Shown here: piece by piece, positions 7,941-45,420 of the stretch
Layout: every line of letters starts with the position of its first letter
How positions within the stretch are numbered: the first letter of the stretch is position 1
IMG/VR virus record: IMGVR_UViG_3300027865_000001
Source of the DNA: a virus
Direction: 5' to 3' (one strand)
DNA: 45,420 nt
Translations under genes and position numbers: made by a program
Notes under the pieces: model-generated
Database searches by the model: none
Seen by the model: only the letters and a program-made list of their open reading frames with translations
Told to the model about the DNA's origin: nothing

Positions 7941-7963
7941 GATATTCCTCGCTTTCTCTTATA

Positions 7964-8638
7964 CTACAACGCCTCTATTCGAGTATCCTCCTCAGTAAGT
8001 GGCGCTTCTAAAAGAGAAAGTGCTTTTTGTCGTACTAAGCTAGCATCCTCTACATTCTTTAGTAAAGTAGATGCTGGCAATGTGTGGAGTTCTTGTTCCC
8101 CTGCACGGGTTACTTGGTTATCTATATTAACTGTAAATTTTTCTGCAATAATTGTGGGTAATATTAAGTTTACAATATTCTGTTGGTTTACTACTTGATC
8201 TGGACTAGACTGACCACGACGCTTAGCACTATTAATAGTACTAATAGCCCTTAACAGATCAGCAGGTTTTAGTATAAATCCAAGACTTTGTTCTAGTTTA
8301 GCTAATAACTTATCTTCTATGGTATCATAAGAAGCATCTCTGTTATTATGTTTCTGGAGATTCTCATAGCGGAGAGTACTTACAGCATCAGAGAATGTTT
8401 GCTCAGATAGTAACTGACTAATTCTAGCAGGAGTTACACCTAATGCATTAGCTACTGCTTCTCCTCCAATACCAGCACCTAGTAATACTAATGCACGATC
8501 TTCGATACTAGTAGTTGTGCCGCGCGCAAGTTTACCATTTACGGCAGATACTTCTGTAGGAGCAGCAGAAACTGGTATCTTCTTACCATCTTGGAAACCC
8601 AAGTCTGCAAGTGTTATATTATTCATATCATGCAACAT
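7964..8638 (-). CDS. Terminase small subunit candidate (HTH DNA-binding protein)
   Basis: 224 aa, located upstream of terL. It has a helix-turn-helix-like segment GEAVANALGVTPARISQLLS. The repeat array at 8859-9010 lies just upstream. Confidence 0.55.
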   Translation of the reverse strand: MLHDMNNITLADLGFQDGKKIPVSAAPTEVSAVNGKLARGTTTSIEDRALVLLGAGIGGEAVANALGVTPARISQLLSEQTFSDAVSTLRYENLQKHNNRDASYDTIEDKLLAKLEQSLGFILKPADLLRAISTINSAKRRGQSSPDQVVNQQNIVNLILPTIIAEKFTVNIDNQVTRAGEQELHTLPASTLLKNVEDASLVRQKALSLLEAPLTEEDTRIEAL

Positions 8639-8858
8639 GTTTCCTCCTTCTGGTAAGAACTGATCGCGGCTATCTTGATATACTACTATAACAGTTAGCT
8701 ATAGGATGCATAGGTAGTAATCGTAAATAGACTTCTTAGATAGCAATATGTATAAAAAGTTTAGGAAAAATAGGGATGTTCCTTAGGATAGCGCGTCTCG
8801 GATAGTCTAAAAAAGCTTCCTACCCCACCCTTCTGGATAGATTGTGTCGTGTGTGGTG

Positions 8859-9010
8859 TAATAAAACTACTGAATGGTACGCAGTACTCATTAGGAATAA
8901 GACTACTTAAGGGTAGCTTGCTACTCATTAGGCTTGTAATAAGACTACTTAAGGATAGCTTGCTATTCATTGATGCTTTTAATAAGATTACTTAATAGTC
9001 AGCTTGCTGA
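8859..9010. repeat. Four phased direct repeats (about 36-43 bp period); candidate pac / TerS-binding or late-regulator sites
   Basis: The core aataaGActacttaaGGnTAGCTTGCTa starts at about 8860 (degenerate copy), 8896, 8938 and 8981. Copies 2 and 3 are nearly identical. The array is intergenic, between the 247-aa gene and the TerS candidate. Confidence 0.8.
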
Positions 9011-25565: not shown

Positions 25566-26515
25566 AAATACTAGTAGTATACCATGGGGAGTCTTGCACC
25601 GATGGATTCACTAGTGCATGGCTAGCAACTGTAGCAGCTAAACGAGCAGGATATGAAGCACCTGAGTTATATCCTTTAACTTATGCAGACGGACAAGAAC
25701 AAGAATTACAGCATCATATAGTAGATCAATTCATAATACGGGATCACTATGATATAATCTACATACTAGATATTTCTCTTACTGAACAGTGCTTAGCAGT
25801 TATAGTAAAGACTAGTAAAGCTAACATCGTAATGCTAGACCATCATAAGACAGCTTTCGATAGGTATCTACCAGATGTGCCGCGTACCAAATATGAGAAA
25901 GCAACTGTATCTCTATTTGATAAGCAGGTTTACATAGGTCTAAATAATGGTATGTCTGGTGCTGGTATGACTCATATGTATTTCTTTCCAAAAGAAGAAG
26001 AAGCACCATTGCTAGTACAGCATGTACAAGATAGAGATAACTGGTCATATGATATGAAGCATACTAAAGCAGTAGATAGGTACTTAAAGAATCAAGAGCA
26101 AACTATAGAAAACTGGACTGATATTAATGCTATGATGTGTCATGCTACTGGGTATTGTAAAGTAGTACAGGAAGGACAGGAGATATTAGATCTCTATGAG
26201 GCTAAGATAGAAGAGATATGTGGATACGCAGAGTGGATAACTATCCTTGGATCTACAGGACTTATGGTAAGATGTAACTATGAATATGCTTCAGATGTAG
26301 GTCATCTTTTATGTAAGACCTCTGGTACTTTTGGTTTAACTTACTCTGCAATGAAGAGAGAGATAGGTATGCCAAGTGTATTTAGAGTCTCGCTACGATC
26401 GGAAGGAGACTTTGACGTAGAAGATATAGCTAAGGAGTTAGGAGGAGGCGGTCATAAGAATGCAGCTGGTTTCATTATAGCACAGGATAGGCTATTTTCA
26501 GGAGATCTAGCATGA
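25562..26515 (+). CDS. DHH/DHHA1-family phosphoesterase (NrnA/RecJ-like)
   Basis: 317 aa with an N-terminal YHGESCTDGF, the DHH motif VMLDHHKT, and the DHHA1 motif GGGGHKNAAGF. Confidence 0.8.
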   Translation: MKILVVYHGESCTDGFTSAWLATVAAKRAGYEAPELYPLTYADGQEQELQHHIVDQFIIRDHYDIIYILDISLTEQCLAVIVKTSKANIVMLDHHKTAFDRYLPDVPRTKYEKATVSLFDKQVYIGLNNGMSGAGMTHMYFFPKEEEAPLLVQHVQDRDNWSYDMKHTKAVDRYLKNQEQTIENWTDINAMMCHATGYCKVVQEGQEILDLYEAKIEEICGYAEWITILGSTGLMVRCNYEYASDVGHLLCKTSGTFGLTYSAMKREIGMPSVFRVSLRSEGDFDVEDIAKELGGGGHKNAAGFIIAQDRLFSGDLA

Positions 26516-28557: not shown

Positions 28558-31500
28558 CTAGTTACCAGAGAAATCTCTGATTGGTTCGCCACCCATGATC
28601 TCTTGCATAGCTTGATTGTATGGACTGTTAAGGTTTCTTAATATCTCATTAGCTTGAGAACTATTAGCTTCTTTATATAGTTGAGTAAACCATCCTGCGA
28701 ATTCTTCTTGCCTACCACCAGCAGCAGCATAGTCAGTAGCAAAATTATTAATCTGTTCACCAGTAGGATTATTACCAGCAAGCACTGTGGATTTAATAGC
28801 TGCTCCTAAGATGTGTCTTTTCCTAGCATCCTTCAATCCATAAGTCTGGAAGCGGTAAGTAGCATCTAATGCTATAGCCTCATCCAGTGGCTTACCTCCT
28901 GAAATACGAGCAAGGTTAGCTAGACTAAGTAAGTCATTAGCAGCTACTACATTCCCACGTTTACTAGTACTGAAGCTCGCACGGTTAGGATTATTAAACG
29001 CTTGTAGTGTAGCACCTAAGCCTGCTAATGGTCTGCTTATACCATTATGCTCAAGTCCCTTAAGTAAGACAGTAGCTACATCGCCACCTTTTCCTATTAT
29101 AGGGATAGGAAGTTGCTTAGTAGTATTAATTATATTAGCTGCAAACTTACCAAAGGCTTGTATGATAGGTACTTTAGCAGGGTTGACAGGTAGTACAGTA
29201 ACTTGTCTAGGGTTAAGATCACCACGAGTATATAGATTCACTTTCAAATCTGGATGTAGTAGGCCCAGTGCAGTACTAGCCATACCATACATTAAGAAGT
29301 CTCCAGCTTCTTTACCTGCTATTCCATAGGTAGCATCATACGCATCTCTATGTTGAGCATTACCTGATGCACTTCCTACAATATGAGTATTAACTGCATT
29401 AAATGCTGGCAGTCCATTCATACCATGGATAGTACCTTGTAGTCCTATAAGGGTAAGAGCATCTTTAGCATGCCCTTCTCCTACGTGACGGAATAGCTGT
29501 TGTAAGAGGTTGAATTGGTAAGTCTGAAAGAGTCCTACAGCTTGTCCTATTGGTCCTTGAAATGCCATAGGTCTTTGAGATGCTAAGTAGTTACCCTGTG
29601 TTCTATTTACGAAGGTATTAATATAAGCTTTCTGCTCAGCAGCAGAGATAAGACCTCGCTTAACTCCTACATCTGAGATCTGCTTCATTACATCAGCAGC
29701 AATAAACCTATTAAATTCTTCTGCTAATCTATTACCAGTCCACCTCTCACCAGCATCTCCTATATCTCGCATATTCTTTCTAAGACCATTCATCCTAGAG
29801 TTCCAAGCATCTACTGATTCTCGACCAGTAAAAGTAAGAGTCTCAATAGCATCTCGGTACTGATCAGTGATAGAAGTAAGGTAGCCATTGTCTCTGTAGA
29901 ACTGCATGGTAGGGCCTTGCAATCCCTCATTGTGAAGCTTGTTAAGAGAGTTAGCTATAAGCTTAGTAGGTGCTTGCATTAAGCCACCATCAGTACCGGG
30001 TACTGCTATCTTAGTAAGCTTTGCTAACTCTCCTATCGCGTCACTATCACCTCTATTTATAGCTCGCTGAACTGCTTTCACCTCTGCGCCAAGTAATACA
30101 TTAGCAGAGACTGCGTTATTGATAGCGTTAAGAAAATCCCATCGCAATACTATAGTAGCCATTGTGCTATTAGCTTTTTGTACTATAGCACTAAGAGTAC
30201 CTTTAGCAGGTCGTGCATTTGCAAATATATTCATCTCTGCATCATACTGCACTCCTTTATAACCTGCTCGTTCTAGCATCTTATTAATCTGACCTACATC
30301 AGCATCAGTCTTAACAGCATAGAAAGCATCACTTGCAGATTTTTGTACCTGCGATATTACATTATCTGCATACTTATTAAGAGATGTCCAGATAGGATAG
30401 CTAGCATGATCCTTAACAGCTAGTGCAGTCTTAATATAAGAGCCAAAAGGATTCTTAACTGACTCATCCGCGAATGTTAACAAGCTTTGATCAGAGAACT
30501 TAGATGTTTGAATGTTAGTAGCATCATCACCTAATCTTCTAAGCTCTTCAAATTGTACTTCATACTTAGCACTTATAGCTTCTCGTACTATACCTGTCTC
30601 TCGTTGGAGATGCCAGCTTAATACATCATCTATTATTTTCTTAGGATCAGTAGATACAATGAAGGGAGCACTAGTACCTGCTCGCTGCATCTCAGTGTTA
30701 AGATAAGTACTGTTCATAGTTTTCTCATAATCCCACTGACCGATGTTAGCGAATGCTTCTTCAGCTTCACCTTTAGTACGTACTTCTAAATGGGGATTAC
30801 CTTGCTCAATCTTAGCCTTCATCTTCTTAAGTTCATCAGCACTACTGGCAAAGAGAGTACGATTAGCACCACCTCCAGTAGCAGAGCGATCTATTACTAT
30901 AGCAAAGTGCTTATAGTCTTGTGGATTTATTGGAATAGCATAGAAAGCATCAGCTGATCTAGAGATCTCTACTCCTTGCGCTGCTTTAATAGCTGCAAGT
31001 CCTTCAGTGCGTATACCATTAACTTGTATATGCGCTGCAACCATATCTCGTACTTCTTGTGAGAGTAATGGAATCTCTAGTGGCATATTAGGATCAGGAA
31101 GTACAAAGTTTTCAGGCATCTCAGTCTTGTTCTTTGTAGCTGCTGCCACTTGTGCCTCGTAGCGTTTCATTACTGAAGGTATTAATGCATCACCAGTATC
31201 ATTAAGTGCATACTCTCCTTTAATGTTTCTCACACGAGAATTAAGAGTAGCCCACTCTATAGCTGCTTCTTGATTCTGACCAAGAGCATATAGGTGTGGT
31301 TCTAATGTATCTCTTGCTCTAGTCTTAAAAGCTCCAATAGCTCTAGATGTAACTGAGCCTATATACTCTACTGCAGCTGCAAGAGAACCATAGTTAGAAG
31401 ACGCAGCTGTAAATCTACCCGGTCCTGCACCAGTACTTACAGCTCCAGCTCGTACTCTGGGAGTAGTAATCAAAGGTAGCGCTGCCATGATATCAGCGCC

Positions 31501-33609
31501 AAGCACATAGCCAGCAGCAATATCAGCACTAGCTTGGTATGCTACTTGATGCTCTTTAATAACTACCATGTTCTCAGTTACGAAATTATCTATATCACGT
31601 GCTCCAACAGTTCTTTTCCTGCGAGTACTGCCATAGATAGATCTTACCGTCTGTGGAATTTCCCAAAGTTCCTTACCGCCCTGCTTAGAAGGTCCTATTT
31701 GAATCTTATTACCTATTACTTCTACACCAAGATTCTCTGCAGTTTCTGCTGTATAAGCATCTAGCGCCAGCATATCATCCTGATGATAGTCACCTGTAGG
31801 AGTAGTTCTTTGCTCTCCACTAAGGACTCTATTTCTTATGTTTACATTTTTAGCTATTTGCTCTTGAGTTAGTATTACCTTACCCGCAGCAATATTCCCA
31901 GCATCCATCTGATGAGCTAGATTTATCTTTTGCTTAAATATGTACTCTTGCAATCCCATTACTCTAGGATCACCAACAGCATTTTCAGGTAATATGAACT
32001 TAACCTCGGAATCAACACGATCTACAAGACCGCTTATTGGTCCCGGTCTTTCACGTAAGAGCTTCTCTAACATAGGAATATCATTACCATGAATAACTAT
32101 AGGACCATTCCTGAAACTTTCTAGTTGCTCACTTCTACTCCAGATATATCTAGCTTCTATTTCTCTAGGTGACATAGCTCTGGTTCCATCAGGCTTCAAT
32201 CTCATAATATCACCCGAAGTAACTGTATCTGCATTAGCATGCTTACCTGTGTTATTAGCTTGAGAGAAAGTATATTTATGTTCGCTTCCTACTCTCACAA
32301 AACGCTTAGTTACTTCTATAATCTCATCACGACCTATACTATCAGCTAGCGATCGTACTGCTGGAACATCTTCGTAAACTTTTCCTACATCATCTCCGTA
32401 CATGCGTACATAAGATACATGCTTTTCATCATTAATAAAAGCTTTCATCTCAGGATCATCTAAATCTACTTGACCTCTAAGTACTTTCTTAGATAGACGA
32501 TCTATATCCCCGATCTCTTTAGTAGGTTGACCTAAACGAGAGATATCAAGTAAGTCTACGTAATTATATTGTCGGTTAGTTATATCAGTTTGATTCAAGA
32601 CTCCATGATAGATATTAGCTATATCTTGATCGCCATGAGCTAGCTCTCCTACCTGCTTCCTTATTCTTCCTGATAGCTTTCGTATTGTAGTATCACGAGC
32701 AGAAGCTAAATTACCTAACAATTCTGCATCACTTGTCTTAGGAAGCTCCGGCATATTCTTAAGCTGCTCTAGATCTAATGAAATACTTTCATGTGTTGCA
32801 GACTTAGCAGCACTCTCTTCTATGAAAGTAAAAGGTCTTGCTGCACTATCCCACTCAGTTGATGCTTTCTTTAAGGCACTGTTTACTTTAGCTGCATGAA
32901 TAGCTGTTCCGAATGCACCAAAGACTGCACCACCTATGACTATGTTAGCTACAAAATCTCCAAAGTCATGGTTACTTAATATAGGGCTAGAAGACATAGT
33001 AGCAGTTACCGCTACTTCAAATGCAGTAGCTTCTAGTATATTCTGACCAAAACCAGCACCTATAGATCGTAGTGCATTAGTGTTAGATAATTTAGCAGGT
33101 GCAGTACCATTAGCTACTTCTTTTATAGCAGCAGCTAGCTTAGTCTGTTTGCCGGGTACGAGTAGTCCTAAGCCTTGAGACATATTCTTACCATACTTAC
33201 CAGCAGCTATAGCTCCCTTAAGAGATCTTTGCATTGCACTTAAGATCTTAATCGAGCCAATTCCGGGTACTAGAGAAGATGCCATGAAACCTACTAAATC
33301 AGCGCCGCCTTTATGATCCTCATAGAATGCAGAAAGATTGCTATCTAAGCTAGCTACTACATCTTCAGTTTTAGAGATCGCATTATCAGCACCAAATATA
33401 TTTCCTATACTAGCAGGGATATTATAGATCTCATTAGCACCAGAGATTAGAGATACACCTATGAACTTTGGTATACTATCTGCTGCATGGTTTATAGACT
33501 GTACAAAGGTAGGATTACGATTAGCTATACTAAGAGTATCTGCTGCTTGGTAAAAGCTAGGAACTACACCAGTCTCTAATGCTTCCTGAAAAGCTGTTTT
33601 GCCAGCCAT
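28558..33609 (-). CDS. Giant internal virion / ejection protein (T7 gp16 positional analog)
   Basis: 1683 aa, the largest ORF. It follows the 219-aa and 857-aa proteins in a gp14-15-16-like order. No enzymatic motif was recognised by eye. Confidence 0.6.
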   Translation of the reverse strand: MAGKTAFQEALETGVVPSFYQAADTLSIANRNPTFVQSINHAADSIPKFIGVSLISGANEIYNIPASIGNIFGADNAISKTEDVVASLDSNLSAFYEDHKGGADLVGFMASSLVPGIGSIKILSAMQRSLKGAIAAGKYGKNMSQGLGLLVPGKQTKLAAAIKEVANGTAPAKLSNTNALRSIGAGFGQNILEATAFEVAVTATMSSSPILSNHDFGDFVANIVIGGAVFGAFGTAIHAAKVNSALKKASTEWDSAARPFTFIEESAAKSATHESISLDLEQLKNMPELPKTSDAELLGNLASARDTTIRKLSGRIRKQVGELAHGDQDIANIYHGVLNQTDITNRQYNYVDLLDISRLGQPTKEIGDIDRLSKKVLRGQVDLDDPEMKAFINDEKHVSYVRMYGDDVGKVYEDVPAVRSLADSIGRDEIIEVTKRFVRVGSEHKYTFSQANNTGKHANADTVTSGDIMRLKPDGTRAMSPREIEARYIWSRSEQLESFRNGPIVIHGNDIPMLEKLLRERPGPISGLVDRVDSEVKFILPENAVGDPRVMGLQEYIFKQKINLAHQMDAGNIAAGKVILTQEQIAKNVNIRNRVLSGEQRTTPTGDYHQDDMLALDAYTAETAENLGVEVIGNKIQIGPSKQGGKELWEIPQTVRSIYGSTRRKRTVGARDIDNFVTENMVVIKEHQVAYQASADIAAGYVLGADIMAALPLITTPRVRAGAVSTGAGPGRFTAASSNYGSLAAAVEYIGSVTSRAIGAFKTRARDTLEPHLYALGQNQEAAIEWATLNSRVRNIKGEYALNDTGDALIPSVMKRYEAQVAAATKNKTEMPENFVLPDPNMPLEIPLLSQEVRDMVAAHIQVNGIRTEGLAAIKAAQGVEISRSADAFYAIPINPQDYKHFAIVIDRSATGGGANRTLFASSADELKKMKAKIEQGNPHLEVRTKGEAEEAFANIGQWDYEKTMNSTYLNTEMQRAGTSAPFIVSTDPKKIIDDVLSWHLQRETGIVREAISAKYEVQFEELRRLGDDATNIQTSKFSDQSLLTFADESVKNPFGSYIKTALAVKDHASYPIWTSLNKYADNVISQVQKSASDAFYAVKTDADVGQINKMLERAGYKGVQYDAEMNIFANARPAKGTLSAIVQKANSTMATIVLRWDFLNAINNAVSANVLLGAEVKAVQRAINRGDSDAIGELAKLTKIAVPGTDGGLMQAPTKLIANSLNKLHNEGLQGPTMQFYRDNGYLTSITDQYRDAIETLTFTGRESVDAWNSRMNGLRKNMRDIGDAGERWTGNRLAEEFNRFIAADVMKQISDVGVKRGLISAAEQKAYINTFVNRTQGNYLASQRPMAFQGPIGQAVGLFQTYQFNLLQQLFRHVGEGHAKDALTLIGLQGTIHGMNGLPAFNAVNTHIVGSASGNAQHRDAYDATYGIAGKEAGDFLMYGMASTALGLLHPDLKVNLYTRGDLNPRQVTVLPVNPAKVPIIQAFGKFAANIINTTKQLPIPIIGKGGDVATVLLKGLEHNGISRPLAGLGATLQAFNNPNRASFSTSKRGNVVAANDLLSLANLARISGGKPLDEAIALDATYRFQTYGLKDARKRHILGAAIKSTVLAGNNPTGEQINNFATDYAAAGGRQEEFAGWFTQLYKEANSSQANEILRNLNSPYNQAMQEIMGGEPIRDFSGN

Positions 33610-33611
33610 TA

Positions 33612-36185
33612 CTATTCCCCTCCTGCTTCATCTAAAACATCCTCAGTATCCTCTCCACCTAAAGTAGAAGAAGAAAGTATAGCTATCATATGCTGTCTTA
33701 CTGCTACAGGGTCAACTAAGTTGAGTGTAATAAAGTCTGAACTTCCTAGTGCGGCAGTACCTGCTGCGGCAGTACCAGCAACGGCAGTACCTGTTATAGC
33801 TGCTGGATAAAGGCTAGTACCAAGTGAGATAGGGGAGGCTGCAACTAATCCTGCAGTAATAATTCCTAAGCCTACAGGAGCTGCTACTCTAGCAGCTGTA
33901 GAACCTGAGATAGTATCTAAAAGGCTAGCACCAAATCCTCTTGGCCGCATTACTCTCATATTAACCGTAGTTACATAAGGCAAACCAATAGTTTGCATAC
34001 CATGATGATTAACATTATTATTAAGTCCTATAGTATTACCGAGAGCTACCACACCTTCTACTGCTTCTTCCTGTGAGATAATATCAGTTGACATAGCTTG
34101 TAATGCTTTAGCAAAGATTGTATCTATATTCGTATCTACATTACCAGAAGGAGTAAGCACATCAGAAAATAAAGGTTGCTTTGCAAGAGTAGGAGATAGT
34201 TCTACTAGTTGAGGAATAGTAGGTGGCTGTAATGGATTGGTAGTATCACCAAAGACTATCTCAGCTTCCTGTTCTTGCATATACTTTGTAGTAGCAGCAT
34301 TGAATCTACTAGCTCTAGAAATCTCATCTTGCGGGAGTGCAGGGTTCTCTTCATCCTGCTTCTGTATGATAGCACGTATTTCTCGTATGATCCTTACGCC
34401 GGGAATTTTATTACTTATTACTCCAGCCCCTTCCATAAGAGTAAGGTTTGCCTCAGACCTAGCAGGAGTAACTCCTATCATGAATTCTCCATTAGGCCCA
34501 CGTGCTGAACCTAGTTGGCGCATTAGCGTATATAAAGCATTATCATTATCAAGCTGTGAGTTAATAACTTCAAGAGATTCTACTGCATGAGCACCAAAGA
34601 TAAAGCTTTGATAAGCTGCTACATTCTCTGCATGAGATGCTTTTACTGTAGCAAGATCTGCTCTCTCATTCATAGCATCTTCTAATACTGCTAATGCTTC
34701 TTCTCCTTTACCTTCTGCCACTAGCTCTGTATATTCAGCAACTGCTCTTTGTATTCTATTATTAAGATCTTGTGATTCTAATGCTCCTTCCTTCTGTGCT
34801 AGCCTAATAGCAGCAGAGGCTTCAAATTCTTCAGCTTCAAGTATAGTTCTCGCAGCAGTTACTTTATCAGCTTCTAATTGGAGTCGTAATACTGCTAGCT
34901 TATCTGCATCTACCGCAGCAGTTTCTGCTTGTTCAAATGCTAGAAGCGATGTATCTAAATTTGTTTCTGCCTGCGCTCGTGCAATCTTAGATGCAGCAAG
35001 CCTATCATTTAGAGTTTCATCATCTACAGTAAGAGCTATAATCTCCCGCTCTAAGTTTACTTCAGCTTGGTTTATTGCTAATTCCTGAATTCTTGCTTTA
35101 TTGGGAGCTAGTCCTTGCTCTACCTTTAAACTTAATGTCTCTCTTCGCAATGCTATCTTATTTCTCTGAGCAGTTACTTCATCCATAACTTTTTGGCGTT
35201 CAAACTTCTGCACATCTAATGCATGTCGCTCTCTTTGAATCTGCTGACCCTCTATGCTATTTACTAGCTGGTAGCCTTTCATTATAAGATCCATCTCTCT
35301 AGATGAGACAGAGAGTAAAGTTCTTAATGTTTCAGCATTAGAGCGATTCTGTTCTAGAGTTACTTTATATAGTTCTACCTGACCAGTAGCAGCTATCTTC
35401 CTTGTATCAGCAGCAATAGTACCTTCAGTTACTAGTTCTCTAGTAGCAGCATTCTGTAGCTGGAAGCTTTCAGTAGCAGCAGTTACTCCCTGTATCTCAG
35501 CAAGAGTAGACTGGTACTGCTTAAGTCCTGCATTGATTTCTATATCTTTAGCGCCACCAGGAGTACCGTAGATTTCTTTATTCAATGCAGACTTGATAAG
35601 GAAACCAAAGCCTCCTTCAGCTGCATCTTGCTCCCTCTCTTCTAAGAGTTCTTGTACATCTTGTGCCTGCTCATGTAATTGATCCATAAGTCTGGTTTGA
35701 TTTTCTGAACTAGTACTTTCTCGTACTACTTTGATTAACTGATTCTGAGCTTTCATATCCTCAGTATTTGTTTGTAAAGCTATAATTTGATCTGCACCAA
35801 TACGTTCAGCAATAGCGTCAGCCATAGCATCAGCATTACTAGCAGATGCTCCTAGATTTTTTTGTAACTGATTAGCTATAGCACCAGTAAGCTCTCTGCT
35901 ACGAGCTAGTGCAGCAGCAGCAGCTGGTGGTAATCCATTTACTAAGGAGCCAGCTACAACTGTGCCTGTCGCTGGAGAGATAGCTGGCTGAGAAGCTCCT
36001 GCTACTCCAGGCGCAGGTAATCTAGGTATAGAGTGGATAACAGCTTGTTGCTCTGCTTCTATAACTGCAGGTAGATTAGGTGTAGTAGCTAAATCTAACT
36101 CAGTTGCTATCTGATTAGCTATCACATTTGTTTCACTTGCCATACCTATATCTAGTTCTTTTAAAGCTGGGAGTGTCTCTGCCAT
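33612..36185 (-). CDS. Internal virion / ejection protein (coiled-coil rich, hydrophobic Ala/Gly-rich C-terminus)
   Basis: 857 aa with long heptad-like helical regions. The C-terminal segment AAPVGLGIITAGLVAASPISLGTSLYPAAITGTAVAGTAAAGTAALG looks membrane-active. Confidence 0.6.
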   Translation of the reverse strand: MAETLPALKELDIGMASETNVIANQIATELDLATTPNLPAVIEAEQQAVIHSIPRLPAPGVAGASQPAISPATGTVVAGSLVNGLPPAAAAALARSRELTGAIANQLQKNLGASASNADAMADAIAERIGADQIIALQTNTEDMKAQNQLIKVVRESTSSENQTRLMDQLHEQAQDVQELLEEREQDAAEGGFGFLIKSALNKEIYGTPGGAKDIEINAGLKQYQSTLAEIQGVTAATESFQLQNAATRELVTEGTIAADTRKIAATGQVELYKVTLEQNRSNAETLRTLLSVSSREMDLIMKGYQLVNSIEGQQIQRERHALDVQKFERQKVMDEVTAQRNKIALRRETLSLKVEQGLAPNKARIQELAINQAEVNLEREIIALTVDDETLNDRLAASKIARAQAETNLDTSLLAFEQAETAAVDADKLAVLRLQLEADKVTAARTILEAEEFEASAAIRLAQKEGALESQDLNNRIQRAVAEYTELVAEGKGEEALAVLEDAMNERADLATVKASHAENVAAYQSFIFGAHAVESLEVINSQLDNDNALYTLMRQLGSARGPNGEFMIGVTPARSEANLTLMEGAGVISNKIPGVRIIREIRAIIQKQDEENPALPQDEISRASRFNAATTKYMQEQEAEIVFGDTTNPLQPPTIPQLVELSPTLAKQPLFSDVLTPSGNVDTNIDTIFAKALQAMSTDIISQEEAVEGVVALGNTIGLNNNVNHHGMQTIGLPYVTTVNMRVMRPRGFGASLLDTISGSTAARVAAPVGLGIITAGLVAASPISLGTSLYPAAITGTAVAGTAAAGTAALGSSDFITLNLVDPVAVRQHMIAILSSSTLGGEDTEDVLDEAGGE

Positions 36186-36928: not shown

Positions 36929-39538
36929 TTATCCTATAAACTCAGATATATGTGTTGCACTAAACTGGTATGCCACTAAAACAACTGAGGTAACAGTATC
37001 ACCATTACCTATTCTTAGTTGTATCAAATCACCTTCAATAGATGTTGCTGGTATTTCTACTATAAGATTAAGAGATATAAGAGTTCCCGGCTGGTTACGT
37101 CCTATAGGAACTGGAATAACCCCAAGCTCAACAGCATCAGTACTATTATATATCTGTATATCAAAAGTTCTGCCAGCATTACTCTCATTATGAGTAAGAG
37201 ATATAAGAATACCTACATTCCATATTCCCTTACTATCAAGTGCTATGGCATCATTAGCATGATCTTGAGTAACGCCAGCGGGTGTAGTAATTAATATAGC
37301 ATCCGCTGGTACAACTTGCCAACCAGCTCCTAGATCAGATAAGCTTGGACCACTTGTATTCTCTATACCTCCGTAGCCTCTAGAGACAAAGACATTCTTA
37401 GCTTCAAACTTACTATTTCCACCCTCAGCCTGTGCTATATAAGTAAGTACACTACCTGTTTCTAACTCTTCAGTGGTACTTACATCTTCGTGATCCTCTC
37501 CATATAAACCATGTACTTGATTGTGATGCTGGTTAGGAGTTATATCATTAAGATTATCATGAGCAGTTGGTACATCTTGAGCTAATTTCTCTACTGCATC
37601 ATGTAAGAAATCTATAGCCCTATCAGTAGCAGGATCTTCAATATCTCCGGGCCTAGCTAAATCTAGATCTATTCCACCTTCGTACCTAGTAGTAGGAGTA
37701 GTAGAGGGGATAACATTTAATGCTGAGACACCTGAAGCTTTTATCGCTACAATAGATGGCGTGCCACTAGCAGGATTAACCGCAGAAACTATAGTAGATA
37801 CACCAGAAGCAATTATCTCTTCAACTGATAAAGCACCAGAAAGTTTCTGAGTCTGTATAACTGTACCAGCAGCAGTGATTTCTTCTATAGAAGGATTACC
37901 AGAAGATGATAAAGTTCCAGCTAACCCAGCTAACCCAGAAGCTTCTATTTCAGCTAGTGTTACCGCACCAGTAGCTTTCTTAATTATCTTAGAAACGCCT
38001 GAAGCAGAAACTACCTCAATGCTAGGTGCACCACTAGGCTTTTGTATTTGATCAACTACACCTAAAGCTGTTATCTCTTCTATTACTAAAGCGCCACTAC
38101 CTTTCTTAAATATAGTAGCTATACCAGAAGCTATAATCTCACTGATGTTTGGTGTACCAGAACTATCTTGAGCAAAGCTAGCAACGCCAGCAGCAATTAT
38201 CTCAGCTAATGTTACTGTACCGTCAGACTTCTTGATTATCTTAGATACACCAGTAGCAGTTATTTCCTCAATATTAGGTGTACCGTCAGAGGTTAAATTA
38301 CCTAGACCAGAAACACCAGATGCTACTACCGCTGCTACTACAACTGTACCGGTAGCTTTCTTAATTATTGTAGATATACCGCTTGCTGTGGGACTAGCTA
38401 TTGAGGGTCCACCACTTGCTACTTGAGTTTGAATAACTGTACCAACAGCTGTTATTTCTGCTAGTATTGGCGTACCTGATGCTGTTAATGTACCAACACT
38501 AATATGTTGAAAACAGCCCATGTCCCGATCACCGGAACCATACGTAGGTCGTGAGTTGCCAGCTATATCTAACGTGGTATCGGCGCGCGAATCACGAACG
38601 CCTCCCGTTTGTGCTGTACCTATAGCTACATGTGTACCTGTTACACCATCTTTTAGTTGATAATCTGGTGTTGATAGAGATTCAACCAGTACAGTATCAC
38701 CTGCCGTATCACTATCTTTCAGCGTTACGCTATTATGATTATAAGTACCTGTTCCAAACTCACCTGTAGCAGAAGTATCACTAGCAATTATTCCGCGATC
38801 ACCATTAACAAAGTTCGCACCATTGGCCCAGTAGTCAGTGCCATTATTGAGGCTGATACAGTTCCAAGCATCCATTGTAACATCACGGGTTGGAGCGTCT
38901 GCTTGTCCTGCTAACCCATTATCACCGCCGCTCTGTCCTATAAACGTATTGTGTTCAATTTGCCATGTTTGATCATTTGAACCGCTGTAATTCTGTGCAT
39001 TAATCAACGAACGGCAGGTCGAATTGCCCTCTAATAAACAATCAAACACATTAACATTAGTAACAGCGACATTACCGGTATAGATCCCATCTTGAGAAGA
39101 ACCGCTACCACTAACTTTTATAATGCATTTTTCAATCAGACAGCTATTTGCACCAGAGAAAACTTCGATACATTCATCACTAGTTCCACTACCTGTTACT
39201 TCTATTTGTAAACCCTTAACTTGAACAAAGTCCTCGTTAATCTCAAGCATTGCTGATTGGCTACCAGGACTACCAGTAAGGCGTTGTTTTGATGTACTCC
39301 ATATCCCTTCATGCCCTGCACCTGAAGTTGGTGTTATTAATGGATGGTTATCTATATCAGGTGACCCGCCTGCTGATGAGTCAAGTTTTGCATCATCTGT
39401 ATCAGCAGTTGTTATACTGATATTAAACAACGCCATATTATCGCCGGTTGCATAATTATGATTAGCTTCATAATCAACAAATGCTAGATCAAGTGTTGTG
39501 AAACTAATGCCATCAATATCATAATTTTGGTCAGCCAT
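36929..39538 (-). CDS. Tail fibre/spike: N-terminal right-handed beta-helix domain, 12 x 21-aa tandem repeats, C-terminal receptor-binding-like domain
   Basis: 869 aa. PbH1-like rungs include IEKCIIKVSG, NVNVFDCLLEGN, QIEHNTFIGQ and AWNCISLNNG, ending with DRDMGCFQH. The SGxPxIxEIxAxGVxxIxKK repeats span aa 350-610. Confidence 0.75.
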   Translation of the reverse strand: MADQNYDIDGISFTTLDLAFVDYEANHNYATGDNMALFNISITTADTDDAKLDSSAGGSPDIDNHPLITPTSGAGHEGIWSTSKQRLTGSPGSQSAMLEINEDFVQVKGLQIEVTGSGTSDECIEVFSGANSCLIEKCIIKVSGSGSSQDGIYTGNVAVTNVNVFDCLLEGNSTCRSLINAQNYSGSNDQTWQIEHNTFIGQSGGDNGLAGQADAPTRDVTMDAWNCISLNNGTDYWANGANFVNGDRGIIASDTSATGEFGTGTYNHNSVTLKDSDTAGDTVLVESLSTPDYQLKDGVTGTHVAIGTAQTGGVRDSRADTTLDIAGNSRPTYGSGDRDMGCFQHISVGTLTASGTPILAEITAVGTVIQTQVASGGPSIASPTASGISTIIKKATGTVVVAAVVASGVSGLGNLTSDGTPNIEEITATGVSKIIKKSDGTVTLAEIIAAGVASFAQDSSGTPNISEIIASGIATIFKKGSGALVIEEITALGVVDQIQKPSGAPSIEVVSASGVSKIIKKATGAVTLAEIEASGLAGLAGTLSSSGNPSIEEITAAGTVIQTQKLSGALSVEEIIASGVSTIVSAVNPASGTPSIVAIKASGVSALNVIPSTTPTTRYEGGIDLDLARPGDIEDPATDRAIDFLHDAVEKLAQDVPTAHDNLNDITPNQHHNQVHGLYGEDHEDVSTTEELETGSVLTYIAQAEGGNSKFEAKNVFVSRGYGGIENTSGPSLSDLGAGWQVVPADAILITTPAGVTQDHANDAIALDSKGIWNVGILISLTHNESNAGRTFDIQIYNSTDAVELGVIPVPIGRNQPGTLISLNLIVEIPATSIEGDLIQLRIGNGDTVTSVVLVAYQFSATHISEFIG
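37709..38491 (-). repeat. Twelve tandem 63-bp (21-aa) coding repeats within the tail-fibre gene
   Basis: Repeat units start at aa 354, 375, 396, 418, 439, 460, 481, 502, 523, 546, 567 and 591. An example unit is SGTPNISEIIASGIATIFKKG. Confidence 0.8.
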
Positions 39539-40008
39539 TAGGGATCAATCTCGTTATTTTCATTATCATGAATCAGCACATCAAGATTTGCCTTGTCGAT
39601 AATAACGTTATTTAATACAGCCTTATCATAGATTAATGTAATAACACCGTTCTCACGCAACTCTCTACGCTTCGGGATGGGTAGATTATTTAGCCTAAAT
39701 CTCCAGCGATTACGTCCAATACGAACAAATCTATCATCAGCATCTGGTGCTTGAAATTCAGGATCGAGAACATGTGCACGTCTACGGTGGGGTTGTTTAA
39801 ATCTACGAGCAGAACGCCACCCTATACCTAAGACAGTAACAATCAAGAATGTACCTGGCCAGTCATTAGGATCGTTACCATTAGCTATCCAAACAGATTT
39901 ATCTTCACGTTCACCAAAGACATAGTTATTAGGAAAGACACCACAAGAGTCTCCCTCAACCCGTCCTGATTGACCAGTAGCTTTAGCAAGAAGTATAAAA
40001 CGGGCCAT
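39538..40008 (-). CDS. Hypothetical Arg-rich protein (156 aa) between the sulfotransferase and the tail fibre
   Basis: Track ORF with TAATG overlaps at both ends (40008 and 39538). No motif was recognised. Confidence 0.7.
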   Translation of the reverse strand: MARFILLAKATGQSGRVEGDSCGVFPNNYVFGEREDKSVWIANGNDPNDWPGTFLIVTVLGIGWRSARRFKQPHRRRAHVLDPEFQAPDADDRFVRIGRNRWRFRLNNLPIPKRRELRENGVITLIYDKAVLNNVIIDKANLDVLIHDNENNEIDP

Positions 40009-40871
40009 TAGTTCACCACCAATGAAATAGAAGTAGGCTCTGAATCTAAATAACCTAGAGCTTTCATAACTGGTCCATGAGCTTCTTCAATTCTTTTAAT
40101 CCACTTAGGTCCTAACTCATCTTGCCAGCGAATTCCACCTTCATTAAAGAACTTACCTCCTTGACTTCTGTTTTCTTGAAAGCCCTCAGTATCTTCTACT
40201 TGCTTAAGCTGTGCCATACTTGTAACTTTAACAGCAGCTTTAACTATTTCAGTATTAACTTCCTCCCCAAGAAACTCTAGTATTTCAGTTAGTTCTTTCT
40301 CTGTATCCTTAATCATATCTTCATAGCGTACAATATGAACAGGAAATTTATTTTCACTAGTCCAAGAAGCTGCATGATTAGTCCAGCTAGAAACTAGTTG
40401 ACTAGAGAAGTTTATATTATCCCCAATAGTAAAATCCTTAAATCCCATCGTATCAACTGCAGCGTCAATCGAGAACTGAAAGAACTTAGCCATAGACAAA
40501 ACTACAGATCTAGGATCACGAACTATATAAACAGCCTTCCTAGTAAACTCTTTAGGAATACAATGAGGTAAACCATCAGGTTGAAAATTAGCAAAGTGAG
40601 TTTTAATCCATAGAGGGGAGTTTAACCTACAGAAGAGATTAAGCAAGGCAGCAGGACGCAACAATAGCTGTGCGTTTAATCCTAAGTCTCCCAATGGTAT
40701 AGGGGATATAGCACGCAAGAGAGTAGCACCACCGTCGGCACTACTAATCCTGATATCATTCAGATCTAGCTTACCATTACGTCTATAAGCTTCTAGCAAA
40801 CAACGCAACCATGTATTACCAGATCTAGGATATGACGCTAACCATATCGCCCCTTCCTTATTCTCTTCCAT
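40008..40871 (-). CDS. PAPS-dependent sulfotransferase
   Basis: 287 aa. It has the 5'-PSB loop SYPRSGNTWL, KTH, the 3'-PB motif VYIVRDPRSVVLS, RYEDM, and a C-terminal GG..W..EL segment. This is the classical Sulfotransfer_1-type layout. Confidence 0.8.
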   Translation of the reverse strand: MEENKEGAIWLASYPRSGNTWLRCLLEAYRRNGKLDLNDIRISSADGGATLLRAISPIPLGDLGLNAQLLLRPAALLNLFCRLNSPLWIKTHFANFQPDGLPHCIPKEFTRKAVYIVRDPRSVVLSMAKFFQFSIDAAVDTMGFKDFTIGDNINFSSQLVSSWTNHAASWTSENKFPVHIVRYEDMIKDTEKELTEILEFLGEEVNTEIVKAAVKVTSMAQLKQVEDTEGFQENRSQGGKFFNEGGIRWQDELGPKWIKRIEEAHGPVMKALGYLDSEPTSISLVVN

Positions 40872-40874
40872 GAC

Positions 40875-41276
40875 TTATGTTACGTCAGGTGTTCCAGCAG
40901 GAACTGTAATGCTAAGGCTAGAGAGCTGAACAGTATCAGTTGTTGCGATAACATTGTTAGCCATTGTAATATCTGGTGAACCACTAGTAGCTACACCTAA
41001 CTGTAAACGCCACAAGCCAGATGCCGCTGTACTATTCAGATGGAATGTTAGACGTACACAAGTACCTGCTGCTGCGGGTGATGTATCCTCAACTGCTGGC
41101 GTAACATCAAGGTCCGTAACTCCTGCAGCACCTGCAATGAATGCTGGATTGCTACAAGCAGCACTAGCTAATAGCGTAGTCAAACCAGTTGTGTACCATC
41201 TCGCGAATGCCGTTGCTCCTAGATCAGTAACAATAGCGGCAGCCAAGGTAGTTCTTAACGCATCTACTAATTGCAT
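40875..41276 (-). CDS. Hypothetical Ala/Thr-rich protein (133 aa from ATG 41276; the track ORF extends to 41333)
   Basis: The internal start MQLVDALRTT is preceded by a GGAGA SD and avoids overlap with the upstream 64-aa ORF. The gene is locally GC-rich (about 47-52% on two hand-counted lines). Confidence 0.6.
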   Translation of the reverse strand: MQLVDALRTTLAAAIVTDLGATAFARWYTTGLTTLLASAACSNPAFIAGAAGVTDLDVTPAVEDTSPAAAGTCVRLTFHLNSTAASGLWRLQLGVATSGSPDITMANNVIATTDTVQLSSLSITVPAGTPDVT

Positions 41277-41298: not shown

Positions 41299-41493
41299 TT
41301 ATGATGCTGCGGCTGCAGCTTCGGCTTCTTCAACAGAACAAATTTTCATCTGTCCTTTGACGCTACCATCTTTTCTAAATATAGTACAGATACCTTCAAC
41401 TTGAATATCTGCTACATTTACATTTCCAGCTCGCTGTAATTTTGCAAGCTCTTCTAAACTAACTTCTTTTCGTCCTTCTGGAACTTCACTCAT
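41299..41493 (-). CDS. Hypothetical protein (64 aa)
   Basis: Track ORF that starts 5 nt after the 518-aa gene stop. Confidence 0.55.
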   Translation of the reverse strand: MSEVPEGRKEVSLEELAKLQRAGNVNVADIQVEGICTIFRKDGSVKGQMKICSVEEAEAAAAAS

Positions 41494-43076: not shown

Positions 43077-43544
43077 CTAAACTACATTATCAATATGAAA
43101 TACCCATTGTGACGATCCAGTAACTGGCGGTGGACCAGCAGTCTTTCTTACTTCAAAATCAACTGTAAATTTACGCTCCCCAGCAGCAGTCTTATTTGAT
43201 GTCCAAACACGTTGTGCGCTGAGTGCAATCCAAGTATCATCAGCAGCAGCTTCAGCAGACCAATCTCCAACACCAAGATCCTGAACTTTATTTGTAAAAC
43301 GAACACTATATGTACCATCAGCTGCGCTAATAGGATTAATCCAAGTACCCGCAGGAGACCAAGTAATTGCAGCGCCATCTAATGACTTACCAGTTTCGAT
43401 AGTACCATCAGTATTAAATCGAATACCAACCGTACTGTCATATGTTGATGAAGGATCAGTTTGTAATACAGTACCTCCACTACCTCCTGATAGAGTGATA
43501 CCTCCACTTAGTATACCCATAAGTATCTGTAATAAATTACTCAT
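43077..43544 (-). CDS. Hypothetical tail-module protein (155 aa)
   Basis: Track ORF with a 1-nt overlap to the upstream gene and a Gly-rich N-terminus. Confidence 0.6.
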   Translation of the reverse strand: MSNLLQILMGILSGGITLSGGSGGTVLQTDPSSTYDSTVGIRFNTDGTIETGKSLDGAAITWSPAGTWINPISAADGTYSVRFTNKVQDLGVGDWSAEAAADDTWIALSAQRVWTSNKTAAGERKFTVDFEVRKTAGPPPVTGSSQWVFHIDNVV

Positions 43545-44344
43545 TACAGATCACTCGCAGCATACTTCCATGTTGTAGCTGTTAGTTTCTGAATAACTGC
43601 TATATGATTATCACCAAGTGTTCTTGTACCAGTTACACCATCAGTTCCAGTCAATGTATCTGTTGTGATAGCAATACTTAAATCACCTCCACCATCATTC
43701 TGGATACAGATTAACGTACCATTAGAAAACGCAACAGCTGTATTAGCAGGAATGGTATATGTTTCTCCAGCGCCCCCAGCTTGCTTATGAATCGTCTTTC
43801 CAGCATCACCTAAAACAAGCGTATAATTACCATCCTGTACATTAGGTGTAGAAGGAATTCCCCAATGACCACTAATCGCTTCATTTGAAGCTATACGAGC
43901 AAGAATAGAACCATCTGTAATTTGACTCTCAAGTACGACTAAAAGATTAAAGATTGTATTTACAGTACCAGTTACTATAGTAACTGCACCAAAGGAGTAA
44001 AAACTTCCTGTTACTGTTCCCGGTATTTCATAAGAAGCTACTGGAACAAGTACAAATGCAGGATTTGAGGCTGTCCAAGCACTATTAAATGCTATCGTAT
44101 CATCAGTAGTTCCATCTCCTTTAGCGCCAAATTGTTTTACATTTGCAGATTCAATGGATTGTAAGACAGCTACAGTAGTACCTGCAAGATCATGGTTACC
44201 TACATTATCTACAGCTTCACTAGCTTTTATTAAATATCTAGCTTGTCCACCATCTCCTGGAGCATAGTATCCTGAAGTTTCTACCAGTTGACCAGCAGTA
44301 AGATATGCTAGTTTCATCTGCGCTACGCTAATAAAGGTTTTCAT
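43544..44344 (-). CDS. Tail fibre/spike-like protein with a pectate-lyase-superfamily N-terminal signature
   Basis: 266 aa. GYYAPGDGGQARY and NVKQFGAKGDGTTDDTIAFNSA match the hallmark motifs of Pectate_lyase_3-type tailspikes. Confidence 0.65.
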   Translation of the reverse strand: MKTFISVAQMKLAYLTAGQLVETSGYYAPGDGGQARYLIKASEAVDNVGNHDLAGTTVAVLQSIESANVKQFGAKGDGTTDDTIAFNSAWTASNPAFVLVPVASYEIPGTVTGSFYSFGAVTIVTGTVNTIFNLLVVLESQITDGSILARIASNEAISGHWGIPSTPNVQDGNYTLVLGDAGKTIHKQAGGAGETYTIPANTAVAFSNGTLICIQNDGGGDLSIAITTDTLTGTDGVTGTRTLGDNHIAVIQKLTATTWKYAASDL

Positions 44345-44387: not shown

Positions 44388-45329
44388 CTATTCGCTAGTT
44401 ACGTATTCATACCAAACACGAATCTTGCCAGCTGTAAGACCAGCAGTTGCAATTGTTACAACCAACTGTGAAGCGAACGTGGTTTTAGTGGTGAAAAGTG
44501 CTGCACTACCATCAGGTAAAAAATCATGATAGCCAACAGCAAACGCTGCATTATCATAAGCAGTCGCTGCTAAGAGACCATCAATGTCAGCTGCAAGGAT
44601 ACCCCAAGTAAGAACAGAAGCGCCTGCACTTGTAAGCGCTGTTATTACTTCATAATATGCCCGGATGATTGTAGAGTTATCAGGGATTGGTGCACTAAAA
44701 GCTGCTACACCCGGCTCTCCTCCGAGACCATGTAAGGCAACATCAAATAATGCTGTAACAAAATGTGATGCAGTAGGTCCAACATCGCTATAAGCGAGAA
44801 GGAGTATAGTACCTGCTGGATAAGAATCTGTAAGAGTTATAATGTTATTAACAGTATCAGCAGAATAGTCTGTACCTAATACTAACCGACCATTATCTAC
44901 ACCTGGACCGCTGATATAAAGTGCACCGTTAGCTACAGGTACAGCTGCTCCGAAGTTCACTATTAGCTGTCCAGCAATAAGTACTACTTCAGTAGTGGCG
45001 AGATCAGTTACAAGTACACTTACTTCAGCAGTAATACCAGGACATGCATTAGCTACTACTACATCACCTGCGAGTACTGTTTCATTCTGAAGGAAGAATG
45101 TAGTAGTAGAAAGTTCTATTACATTAGCTGGATCTACAAGTAAACCATTCCTATGTACCCGAAGACTATTAGTACCTGGAGCATAAGAGAAAGCTGTTAA
45201 TGTGAAAAGTGTCTGAGCAGCTGTAGCTATAAAACGCTGTTCACCATTAGCTGAATCACAAGGATCACAAACTACTGCATCAGAACAACCTTCTTGCCAT
45301 GCATTTATTTCTTTACATGATGTGACCAT
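44388..45329 (-). CDS. Structural / receptor-binding-like protein (313 aa)
   Basis: Track ORF with a Cys-rich N-terminus (CKEINAWQEGCSDAVVCDPC) followed by beta-rich segments. Its first 12 codons are duplicated at 1-36 by the assembly overlap. Confidence 0.6.
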   Translation of the reverse strand: MVTSCKEINAWQEGCSDAVVCDPCDSANGEQRFIATAAQTLFTLTAFSYAPGTNSLRVHRNGLLVDPANVIELSTTTFFLQNETVLAGDVVVANACPGITAEVSVLVTDLATTEVVLIAGQLIVNFGAAVPVANGALYISGPGVDNGRLVLGTDYSADTVNNIITLTDSYPAGTILLLAYSDVGPTASHFVTALFDVALHGLGGEPGVAAFSAPIPDNSTIIRAYYEVITALTSAGASVLTWGILAADIDGLLAATAYDNAAFAVGYHDFLPDGSAALFTTKTTFASQLVVTIATAGLTAGKIRVWYEYVTSE

Positions 45330-45420
45330 AGTATTAGTATCCTACATCCGAAAGGCCAGTGATTTTAAGTAAGGCGTATTCTTCACCTACTAACGTATTG
45401 TATTGAGCGGACTGTTCATC
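45294..45420. repeat. Terminal direct repeat, right copy (identical to 1..127)
   Basis: See the left copy at 1..127. Confidence 0.9.

Follow-up and report, generated by a model that had tools for sequence, protein, structure and literature searches.

The nearest structurally solved relatives of the gene considered here are StaL, Teg12 and Teg14 (PDB 2ov8, 3mg9, 3nib), sulfotransferases that belong to antibiotic clusters of actinomycetes and environmental DNA and act on cross-linked non-ribosomal heptapeptides. Sulfotransferases of lasso-peptide clusters have also been noted and are uncharacterised (PMC8498205, citing Zhu et al. [quoted passage not shown] The gene itself encodes a 287-aa sulfotransferase of the 3'-phosphoadenosine-5'-phosphosulfate (PAPS) type, abbreviated ST, and lies in IMG/VR virus record IMGVR_UViG_3300027865_000001; the window is the whole stretch of 45,420 nt that was analysed. 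We find that ST belongs to a three-gene cassette which, judged by sequence, has moved between unrelated phage backbones. We propose, with a probability of roughly 0.4, that ST would draw on the host's PAPS and sulfate one of the proteins of the fibre complex ahead of assembly.

In mycobacteriophages, glycosyltransferase genes lie beside capsid and tail genes, and glycosylation of the virion has been shown experimentally. The role proposed for ST resembles this system in that a cytoplasmic modifying enzyme encoded in a structural operon would act on virion proteins before assembly. It differs in the group transferred (sulfuryl instead of glycosyl), in the enzyme families and the hosts, and in being inferred only. 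Marine viral sulfotransferases of the PAPS type are represented by the Sulfotransfer_3 proteins of OM43-phage-like genomes and of Synechococcus phage S-SRM01 (PMC10580990). Unlike ST, these match PF13469 only and have no conserved partner genes described, and tblastn in the cultured-phage collection gave no similarity between ST and sulfotransferases of this type.

Seroconversion and O-antigen modules consist of a membrane-embedded enzyme or Gtr-type partners in a temperate phage, and usually lie near int/att. Among the window open reading frames (ORFs) scanned, namely the majority of those reaching 100 aa but none of the small ones, no match to Gtr, acyltransferase or integrase families was found. 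ST is not part of a seroconversion module, and the window phage looks lytic, since no integrase match was found.

The sequence-only reading of this locus had joined ST to two orphan proteins of 133 and 156 aa. We find that the real unit is a mobile cassette made of a 64-aa protein (hereafter small), the 133-aa protein (hereafter mid) and ST. What is new here is that small, mid and ST form a conserved and mobile cassette joined to a repeat fibre, together with the wider embedding of this ST family in podovirus structural operons; the literature searches turned up a description of neither. The three genes are the following.

41299..41493, minus strand: small, 64 aa, opens the cassette and directly precedes the 133-aa gene wherever a cassette contig has room for it
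40875..41276, minus strand: mid, 133 aa, probable small virion-appendage (fibre- or whisker-associated) structural protein according to its AlphaFold2 (AF2) model and Foldseek matches
40008..40871, minus strand: ST, 287 aa, PAPS-type sulfotransferase (Sulfotransfer_1) according to Pfam, PDB relatives and motifs

The sulfotransferase and its cellular relatives

By all sequence criteria tested, ST is a member of Sulfotransfer_1, bar a Lys-to-Arg change in the 5'-phosphosulfate-binding (PSB) loop. Its match to PF00685 (Sulfotransfer_1), with E 3.9e-26, scores 92.4 bits where the cut-off is 22 and spans residues 9-272 (model positions 4-254 of 255); PF13469 is matched too (E 3.4e-11). In the translation the motifs are S13-YPRSGNTW-L22 for the 5'-PSB loop, K90-T91-H92, Y115-IVRDPRSVVL-S126 for the 3'-phosphate-binding (3'-PB) motif, and R182-YEDM186. 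The earlier identification of the 287-aa ORF as a PAPS-type sulfotransferase is therefore borne out by Pfam, by motifs standing where they are expected, and by the profile and PDB sequence searches that place the fold. The accompanying claim of a full signature stands for His92 and for the Arg and Ser of the 3'-PB motif, but not for the canonical PSB-loop Lys, which is Arg16 in the window ST.

Conservation around these motifs is strong. Residues P15, S17, G18, N19, T20, K90, T91, H92, R118, D119, P120, R121, S126, Y183 and E184 are invariant in 37 STs of the phage clade, which are 47-100% identical to the window ST. Among 120 relatives, KTH is kept in 119 and RDPR in all 120, and the catalytic-base segment K90-T91-H92 aligns with the same segment of Teg12 and Teg14. 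The PSB-loop residue is Lys in 107 and Arg in 4 of the 111 relatives that could be scored (9 of the 120 are N-terminally truncated), and all four Arg-bearing STs fall in the window phage's own sub-clade, down to 70% identity. This pattern of conservation in the catalytic motifs indicates selection for catalysis; judged from these alignments, ST keeps a PAPS-sulfotransferase fold signature that is complete but for the PSB-loop Lys.

The Arg of the window sub-clade could also be read as a sign that the fold has been co-opted as a non-catalytic fibre subunit carried on the virion, for example a lectin that binds nucleotides or sulfate esters, and an extra conserved C-terminal tail of about 10 aa in about half of the clade would suit such a use. 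We consider this very unlikely. Apart from Arg, which replaces Lys conservatively, the catalytic and PAPS-binding residues do not vary within the clade; Lys is the residue in 107 of the 111 relatives, and the likeness of the tail to the fibre repeat fails a decoy test. The tail, at 40008-40046 in the window, follows the pattern (P/V)xELxAV(S/E) and occurs in homologues that include P0004, P0020, P0074, P0097 and P0099; the other STs of the clade end at GYL. As a mimic (..ELTAVS) of the fibre repeat core (EITASG) the tail was rejected, because the tails score below shuffled and reversed decoys.

ST appears to be cytoplasmic: reading the translation by eye revealed no obvious hydrophobic N-terminal segment (no signal-peptide or transmembrane predictor was run). 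NCBIfam naming gave no match for any of six proteins.

A PDB sequence search with ST returned Teg14, Teg12 and StaL at E 2.5e-18 to 6e-12, followed by cytosolic SULTs. Like ST, the glycopeptide enzymes have the Sulfotransfer_1 fold, a length of about 285 aa, a near-identical N-terminal PSB segment (WxASYPK(A/S)GNTWxRCxL), KTH and RxPR..S. Unlike them, ST is encoded by a virion-operon gene, and outside the motifs it is only distantly similar. The best matches in 185,579 species genomes are 30-38% identical over the full length, so that a gap in identity separates cellular STs (at most 38%) from the phage clade (at least 46%).

The bacterial homologues (L018-L097) come from Roseovarius, Pirellulaceae, Acidobacteriota, Bacteroidota and others. 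Their neighbours are lasso-peptide biosynthetic machinery: a Pfam census of 88 neighbours of 22 loci counted Asn_synthase/GATase_7 nine times and Transglut_core3 eight times, besides PqqD, HPr_kinase_C and NTP_transf_5. Immediately upstream of the bacterial ST, and on the same strand, there is often a conserved gene of some 300 aa that Pfam does not match. The lasso-cluster STs are the closest cellular homologues found and are presumed to tailor a ribosomal peptide. The lineage of ST points to peptide acceptors rather than glycans, since the nearest solved relatives (Teg12, Teg14 and StaL) modify peptides and the lasso-cluster relatives presumably do so.

ST is nevertheless not a member of a glycopeptide or lasso tailoring cluster, because the context that defines such clusters is absent. 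Pfam scans of window ORFs found no non-ribosomal peptide synthetase (NRPS) and no P450, and the lasso cyclase and B1/B2 genes (PqqD, transglutaminase-like) are missing from the window and from all phage cassette loci. Conversely, none of 80 bacterial loci carried 64-aa, 133-aa or repeat proteins beside ST.

A mobile cassette of three genes

All data on genomic context come from metagenome assemblies, and the gene calls in the fetched loci are partly our own ORF calls. The cassette was defined as three co-directional, adjacent genes that encode proteins of 52-76 aa and 128-139 aa and an ST of 271-306 aa, with intergenic distances of at most about 25 nt; the window and all other carriers examined have this arrangement. 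In the window the gaps are 22 nt between the 64-aa and 133-aa genes and 3 nt between the 133-aa gene and ST. The 133-aa ORF starts with ATG at 41276, with GGAG 9 nt upstream, and its stop codon TAA is followed by GTC and then by the ATG of ST. This 3-nt gap had been reported by the sequence-only reading together with TAATG overlaps at 40008 (ST and 156-aa ORF) and 39538 (156-aa and 869-aa ORFs), and the DNA confirms all three junctions.

Relatives of ST are plentiful in metagenomes, with 2,903 matches of which the best are 47-100% identical. The order small-mid-ST is found in the window and in seven relatives that were chosen to span this range of ST identity (L001, L003, L006, L008, L011, L098 and L099; mid is 128-135 aa there), that is, on eight phage backbones. 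The carrier backbones, at least eight unrelated ones of podoviruses, are varied: a P22-type portal, an SU10-type portal and major capsid protein (MCP), a lambda-like nin region and a 55-kb type occur among them. With the 133-aa protein as seed, a metagenome scan recovered ST in 18 of 18 contigs with room downstream and small in every contig with room upstream. In IMG/VR, both partners accompanied ST in 10/10 contigs whose ST is at least 46% identical. The three cassette genes are thus always adjacent, in the same order and translationally coupled.

Compared with the window, mid is 45-93% and ST 47-67% identical across cassette loci, whereas for portal and MCP identity does not exceed 28% or no counterpart is detected. 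From this contrast it follows that the trio is a horizontally mobile cassette. A second, unrelated phage that carries the cassette is present in the same sample as the window.

The embedding of ST in a virion/tail operon, as first described, is therefore conserved in related phages and not accidental. The idea of a functional unit with two orphans stood only in part: the 133-aa protein is strictly linked to ST but is no orphan, and the 156-aa protein is not linked. The unit had also been drawn too short, as a conserved fourth gene, the 64-aa ORF at 41299-41493 on the minus strand, belongs to it.

Two distant relatives that have no ST, L017 and L122, encode a mid-like protein beside repeat-bearing fibres and have no small protein either. 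Because these loci keep the mid-like protein and the repeat fibre, mid and the fibre would be the older pair, which suggests that ST with small is an add-on to the fibre module. Contig L121, an apparent cassette devoid of ST, was rejected as truncated or chimeric.

Other possible modifying enzymes occur in some carriers. In the same module as the cassette, L001 encodes a 481-aa MptE-like (Maf-type) and methyltransferase protein (7510-8955), a candidate modifying enzyme, and L098 a GNAT acetyltransferase (13888-14337). A 230-aa ORF of L008 (11218-11910) is methyltransferase-like by eye only.

The two small partner proteins

The 133-aa protein had been taken for an Ala-rich orphan. It has 356 homologues of uniform length (128-139 aa), and the Foldseek check on its predicted model gave a fold like that of small fibre-associated proteins of virions. 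No Pfam family covers it. The AF2 model (pLDDT 92.7, pTM 0.84) finds its best PDB match in 9rkv_A, a 139-residue chain of the tail-fibre complex of Agrobacterium phage 7-7-1 (E 6.7e-5, TM 0.62), followed by A511 gp105, a segment of the phi812 baseplate arm and a GP4 fibre I/adaptor entry. Matches in BFVD are several uncharacterised phage proteins of the same fold, up to E 1e-8 and TM 0.78, and PHROG 3758 ("virion structural protein") is matched at E 1.2e-3. Across backbones whose portals are at most 24% identical, mid remains 45-93% identical. From its model we read mid as a small virion-appendage protein with a fold of the virion-fibre type, and this assigns a structural role to an abundant, previously unannotated family of 133-aa proteins.

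Mid resembles the 7-7-1 fibre-complex chain, A511 gp105 and the phi812 arm, and GP4 fibre I (Gp80, PF23140) in fold and size, but no relationship to these small fibre and whisker proteins exists at the level of sequence (no Pfam match; hhalign 6.6% against Gp80). In other viral contigs a gene of the Gp80 family lies directly upstream of ST, as mid does. Membership of mid in the Gp80 family was rejected, as neither Pfam nor PDB sequence searches gave a match and the hhalign probability was 6.6%. With the GP4 fibre-I chain the resemblance of fold is weak (Foldseek E 0.85, TM 0.48), and the likeness is one of size and position only.

The alignment of the small family comprises 28 distinct sequences. 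They share a conserved beta-hairpin-like core, V.V.G...I.DKDGNVK..L.I.S, with an optional N-terminal E(I/V)(S/T)LEE and an acidic, variable C-terminal tail. Only one Asp and one Gly are invariant, and Ser/Thr residues followed by acidic residues are only semi-conserved. Searches of Pfam, PHROG and PDB gave no match beyond a sub-threshold one to PF16934 (E 0.014), a leader family of the lantibiotic type; the matching part is the N-terminal EVSLEELAKLQRAG segment. This leader-like segment is missing in several members of the family. The possibility that small is a copy of one fibre repeat was rejected, the repeat hidden Markov model (HMM) giving a non-significant E of about 1.

The leader match bears on a reading in which ST sulfates the 64-aa protein, a host peptide or a metabolite, so that a diffusible product is made or inactivated, the fibre module being only a site for hitch-hiking. 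Phage STs are usually listed as auxiliary metabolic genes (PMC10580990), and the relatives of ST are tailoring enzymes of antibiotics and of ribosomally synthesised, post-translationally modified peptides (RiPPs). The acidic, Ser/Thr-containing tail of small would fit as well, as would the joint loss of small and ST in L017 and L122. We nonetheless find a soluble product quite unlikely. The leader-like part is not general in the family, where only Asp and Gly are invariant, and no protease, cyclase or exporter comes with the cassette. Pairs of a mid-like protein and ST also exist with no detectable small protein (L141, L177), and the recurrent place of ST in structural operons of independent lineages is hard to call chance.

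The 156-aa protein and the fibre

Downstream of ST lie the 156-aa gene and an 869-aa fibre gene (36929-39538, minus strand). The fibre protein is a mosaic of three parts, each linked to a different partner in evolution.

39538..40008, minus strand: 156-aa protein of an unknown fold family, apparent partner of the fibre N-terminal domain and not of the ST cassette
38489..39538, minus strand: fibre N-terminal domain, aa 1-350, a gene of its own behind the 156-aa family in three other loci (25-35% identity)
37694..38482, minus strand: fibre repeat region, aa 353-615, 12 units of 21 aa, cross-locus consensus A-S-G-T-P-S-I-D-E-I-T-A-S-G-V-A
36941..37378, minus strand: fibre C-terminal domain, aa 721-866, probable distal/receptor-binding part

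The Arg-rich 156-aa protein, the other supposed orphan of the ST unit, proved to be neither an orphan nor a member. It has 71 representative homologues at E<=1e-3, none of them in any other cassette locus. Its AF2 model has a pLDDT of 96.2; Foldseek found no PDB fold match at E<1, and there was no PHROG match. In all three of the other loci where homologues were placed (L128, L129 and L130), the next gene directly downstream encodes a protein of 364-379 aa, homologous to the first 350 aa of the fibre. The 156-aa ORF was rejected as a partner of ST on these grounds; its absence from other cassettes and its position upstream of the N-domain homologue in 3/3 loci place it, as far as comparative genomics goes, with the fibre N-terminal domain.

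Neither the 869-aa protein nor a profile of its N-terminal domain matched Pfam or PDB sequences, and these searches lend no support to the beta-helix (depolymerase-like) fibre that had been proposed. The repeat consensus, drawn from 181 units, is ASGTPSIDEITASGVA. Downstream of the cassette, the repeat HMM recognises large proteins of 418-1,809 aa, with as many as 36 units, at 13 of the 16 loci that have enough sequence, and it also recognises large proteins in the ST-less L017 and L122; cultured phages gave no match to the repeat region. Hypothetical proteins of Thalassomonas phage BA3 and of two Vibrio breoganii phages share 33-36% identity with the C-terminal 146 aa, and this common domain hints at a marine gammaproteobacterial host.

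ST adjoins receptor-recognition genes, as seroconversion genes sometimes do, and this position has to be weighed for a role in host-envelope modification. ST would then sulfate a glycan or lipid precursor of lipopolysaccharide (LPS), capsule or exopolysaccharide (EPS) in the cytoplasm during infection. The altered receptor would spare progeny from loss on infected cells and debris, or would exclude competing phages. Polysaccharide-lyase-like neighbours are in keeping with this: Pel9A/chondroitinase B in L006, a pectate-lyase-type depolymerase in L099 and, in the window, a 266-aa ORF with an N-terminal match to PF12708. However, the nearest relatives of ST modify peptides and not glycans, the window ORFs scanned yielded neither a glycosyltransferase nor a flippase nor a membrane partner, and the phage looks lytic. 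The cassette is 47-93% conserved across very different fibres, which a conserved, phage-encoded acceptor explains more easily, and the strict linkage to two small phage proteins would be left unexplained. Modification of the host envelope, for either purpose, therefore seems unlikely to us.

Sulfotransferases in structural operons of other viruses

IMG/VR holds 59 further viral contigs with an ST 27-39% identical to that of the window. These distant STs keep the motifs, with the PSB Lys in 59/59 and xTH in 58/59. We analysed 48 non-redundant loci of this set (within L138-L199), clustering neighbours by BLAST at E 1e-5, and found the gene within long co-directional structural operons. A P22-type coat gene stands at position -1 or -2 in 18 of the 48 loci and within four genes in 21. 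An SU10-type head-tail adaptor is at +1 in 15/48 and within three genes in 17, a scaffold gene lies within -2 to -4 in 12/48, and a virion protein of about 490 aa is at +2 in 7.

In several of these loci the gene just upstream of ST encodes a homologue of GP4 fibre I (gp80, PF23140; E 3e-32). In L141 and L177 it encodes a divergent mid-like protein, and small was not detected there. None of 57 cultured podophage records with Gp80-type proteins has such an ST. The pairing of a small appendage protein with ST inside virion operons is thus recurrent in independent lineages, so far only in uncultured phages. Had homologous phages carried ST only outside the tail module, the link to the virion would have weakened; instead, the cassette and the embedding in structural operons recur.

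What the sulfotransferase may modify

We propose that ST serves as the enzyme in a mobile module for a virion appendage, found in uncultured marine podoviruses. Acting in the cytoplasm late in infection, it would use host PAPS to O-sulfate an appendage protein, either ahead of assembly or in its course. The acceptor may be the 133-aa protein, the 64-aa protein or the repeat shaft, and the fibre or whisker would thereby become sulfated and anionic. The fibre I of GP4 forms dimers, several of which are strung on a "rope" protein (PMC12609058); by analogy, and as a guess from co-occurrence, mid may decorate the segment of 21-aa repeats.

The sequence-only reading had offered three roles, namely sulfation of a host surface glycan or receptor, sulfation of a virion component, and joint action with the fibre. 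Among these candidate roles the second is favoured by the peptide-modifying relatives of ST and by its recurrence in podovirus structural operons. A bolder version of the same proposal is that the horizontally mobile cassette represents the first virion protein-sulfation system, a podovirus fibre or whisker being O-sulfated with host PAPS into a polyanionic appendage. This we regard as conceivable but doubtful.

Several points count against sulfation of the fibre complex. We know of no precedent for protein O-sulfation of phage virions. In a search for acceptors among small, mid and the repeats, no candidate residue held up. The alignment of small contains no invariant Ser, Thr or Tyr. The C-terminal extension of mid that is linked to ST (PAGTPDVT) includes TPDVT, which is absent from ST-less relatives; its final Thr was rejected as an acceptor, as the extension ends in Thr in only 89/120 sequences and there are variants that lack any hydroxyl residue. 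Since it also occurs in the ST-less L122, the repeat's "GTP" motif was rejected as well. The lasso and glycopeptide relatives are only 25-38% identical to ST, so the acceptor class may not carry over. The Arg16 of the window ST is a further difficulty. As no PAPS-synthesis gene was found among the window ORFs scanned, activity of ST depends on a host that makes PAPS. Finally, tblastn with ST, the 133-aa protein and one of the distant viral STs as queries gave nothing in 50,697 phage records; no ST homologue is present in a cultured phage, and hence there is no experimental handle.

What the data do establish is one ST clade locked to two small virion-module proteins and moving with them between unrelated phages. 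Together with the recurrence in structural operons and the peptide-tailoring relatives, this linkage turns a vague annotation into a testable proposal, that phages may modify their own particles by sulfation. Virion sulfation, if demonstrated, would be a new post-translational modification of phage virions and a new class of particle modification, and would bear on adsorption, on host range and on how phage surfaces are engineered. A sulfated appendage might mimic the sulfated glycans bound by marine bacteria, or tune adsorption or particle stability. The STs located between coat and adaptor genes would then mean that virion sulfation is widespread in uncultured phages. In this regard the cassette offers a defined three-gene construct for heterologous testing, even though the host is not cultured.

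The phage genome and its late operon

The window is a closed circular phage assembly, with nt 1-127 identical to 45294-45420, and represents a complete genome of about 45.3 kb that is podovirus-like and has about 39% GC. Its metagenome counterpart is contig Ga0255048_10000186 of JGI 3300024518, and the same phage, assembled at 20-50 kb, accounts for 19 of the 24 contigs read that carry its ST. Recognisable genes on the minus strand are TerL, portal and major head protein; others in the window are a DNA polymerase, a primase, a Dda-like helicase, a holin and an endolysin-like gene. Its portal shares only about 32% identity with the portals of EBPR podovirus 3, Polaromonas phage Tiera and the Pseudomonas PaP2/119X group. 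At the DNA level, megablast of the region against 50,697 phage records found no close cultured phage.

The late operon crosses the assembly junction: the 204-aa ORF (41-655, minus strand) precedes the 313-aa ORF (44388-45329, minus strand), as in the relative L013. Within the block of the operon that contains ST, no promoter-like or terminator-like sites occur above chance. The order of its genes is as follows.

Start, minus strand: TerL, portal, 253-aa, 138-aa, MCP, 162-aa and 204-aa ORFs, then the junction
After the junction, minus strand: 313-aa, 266-aa, 155-aa and 518-aa ORFs
Cassette and fibre part, minus strand: 64-aa, 133-aa, ST (287 aa), 156-aa and 869-aa ORFs
End, minus strand: 219-aa, 857-aa and 1683-aa ORFs

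For the 266-aa ORF (43544-44344, minus strand), the match to the pectate-lyase-like model PF12708 is confined to the first ~50 positions of that model; several PHROGs of tail fibres and tail spikes are matched in their N-terminal parts. The relative of this ORF in L013 has 318 aa and is similar over 133 residues only, which suggests a swap of the distal part.

Outside the late operon, a stand-alone DHH/DHHA1 phosphoesterase of 317 aa, the size of NrnA, is encoded at 25562-26515 on the plus strand. It matches PHROG 4771 (E 2e-56), and its weak PDB sequence matches include a "bifunctional oligoribonuclease and PAP phosphatase NrnA". One may speculate that it could clear 3'-phosphoadenosine-5'-phosphate (PAP), the inhibitory by-product of ST; against such a link, the gene lies in the replication module and PHROG 4771 has no ST-specific annotation.

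Two giant ORFs of 1,683 and 857 aa (28558-36185, minus strand) follow the fibre genes and may encode internal or ejection proteins. The C-terminal 300 aa of the 1,683-aa protein match PHROG 16165 (unknown function), and giants of similar size (1,655-3,044 aa) come after the cassette in other carrier phages.

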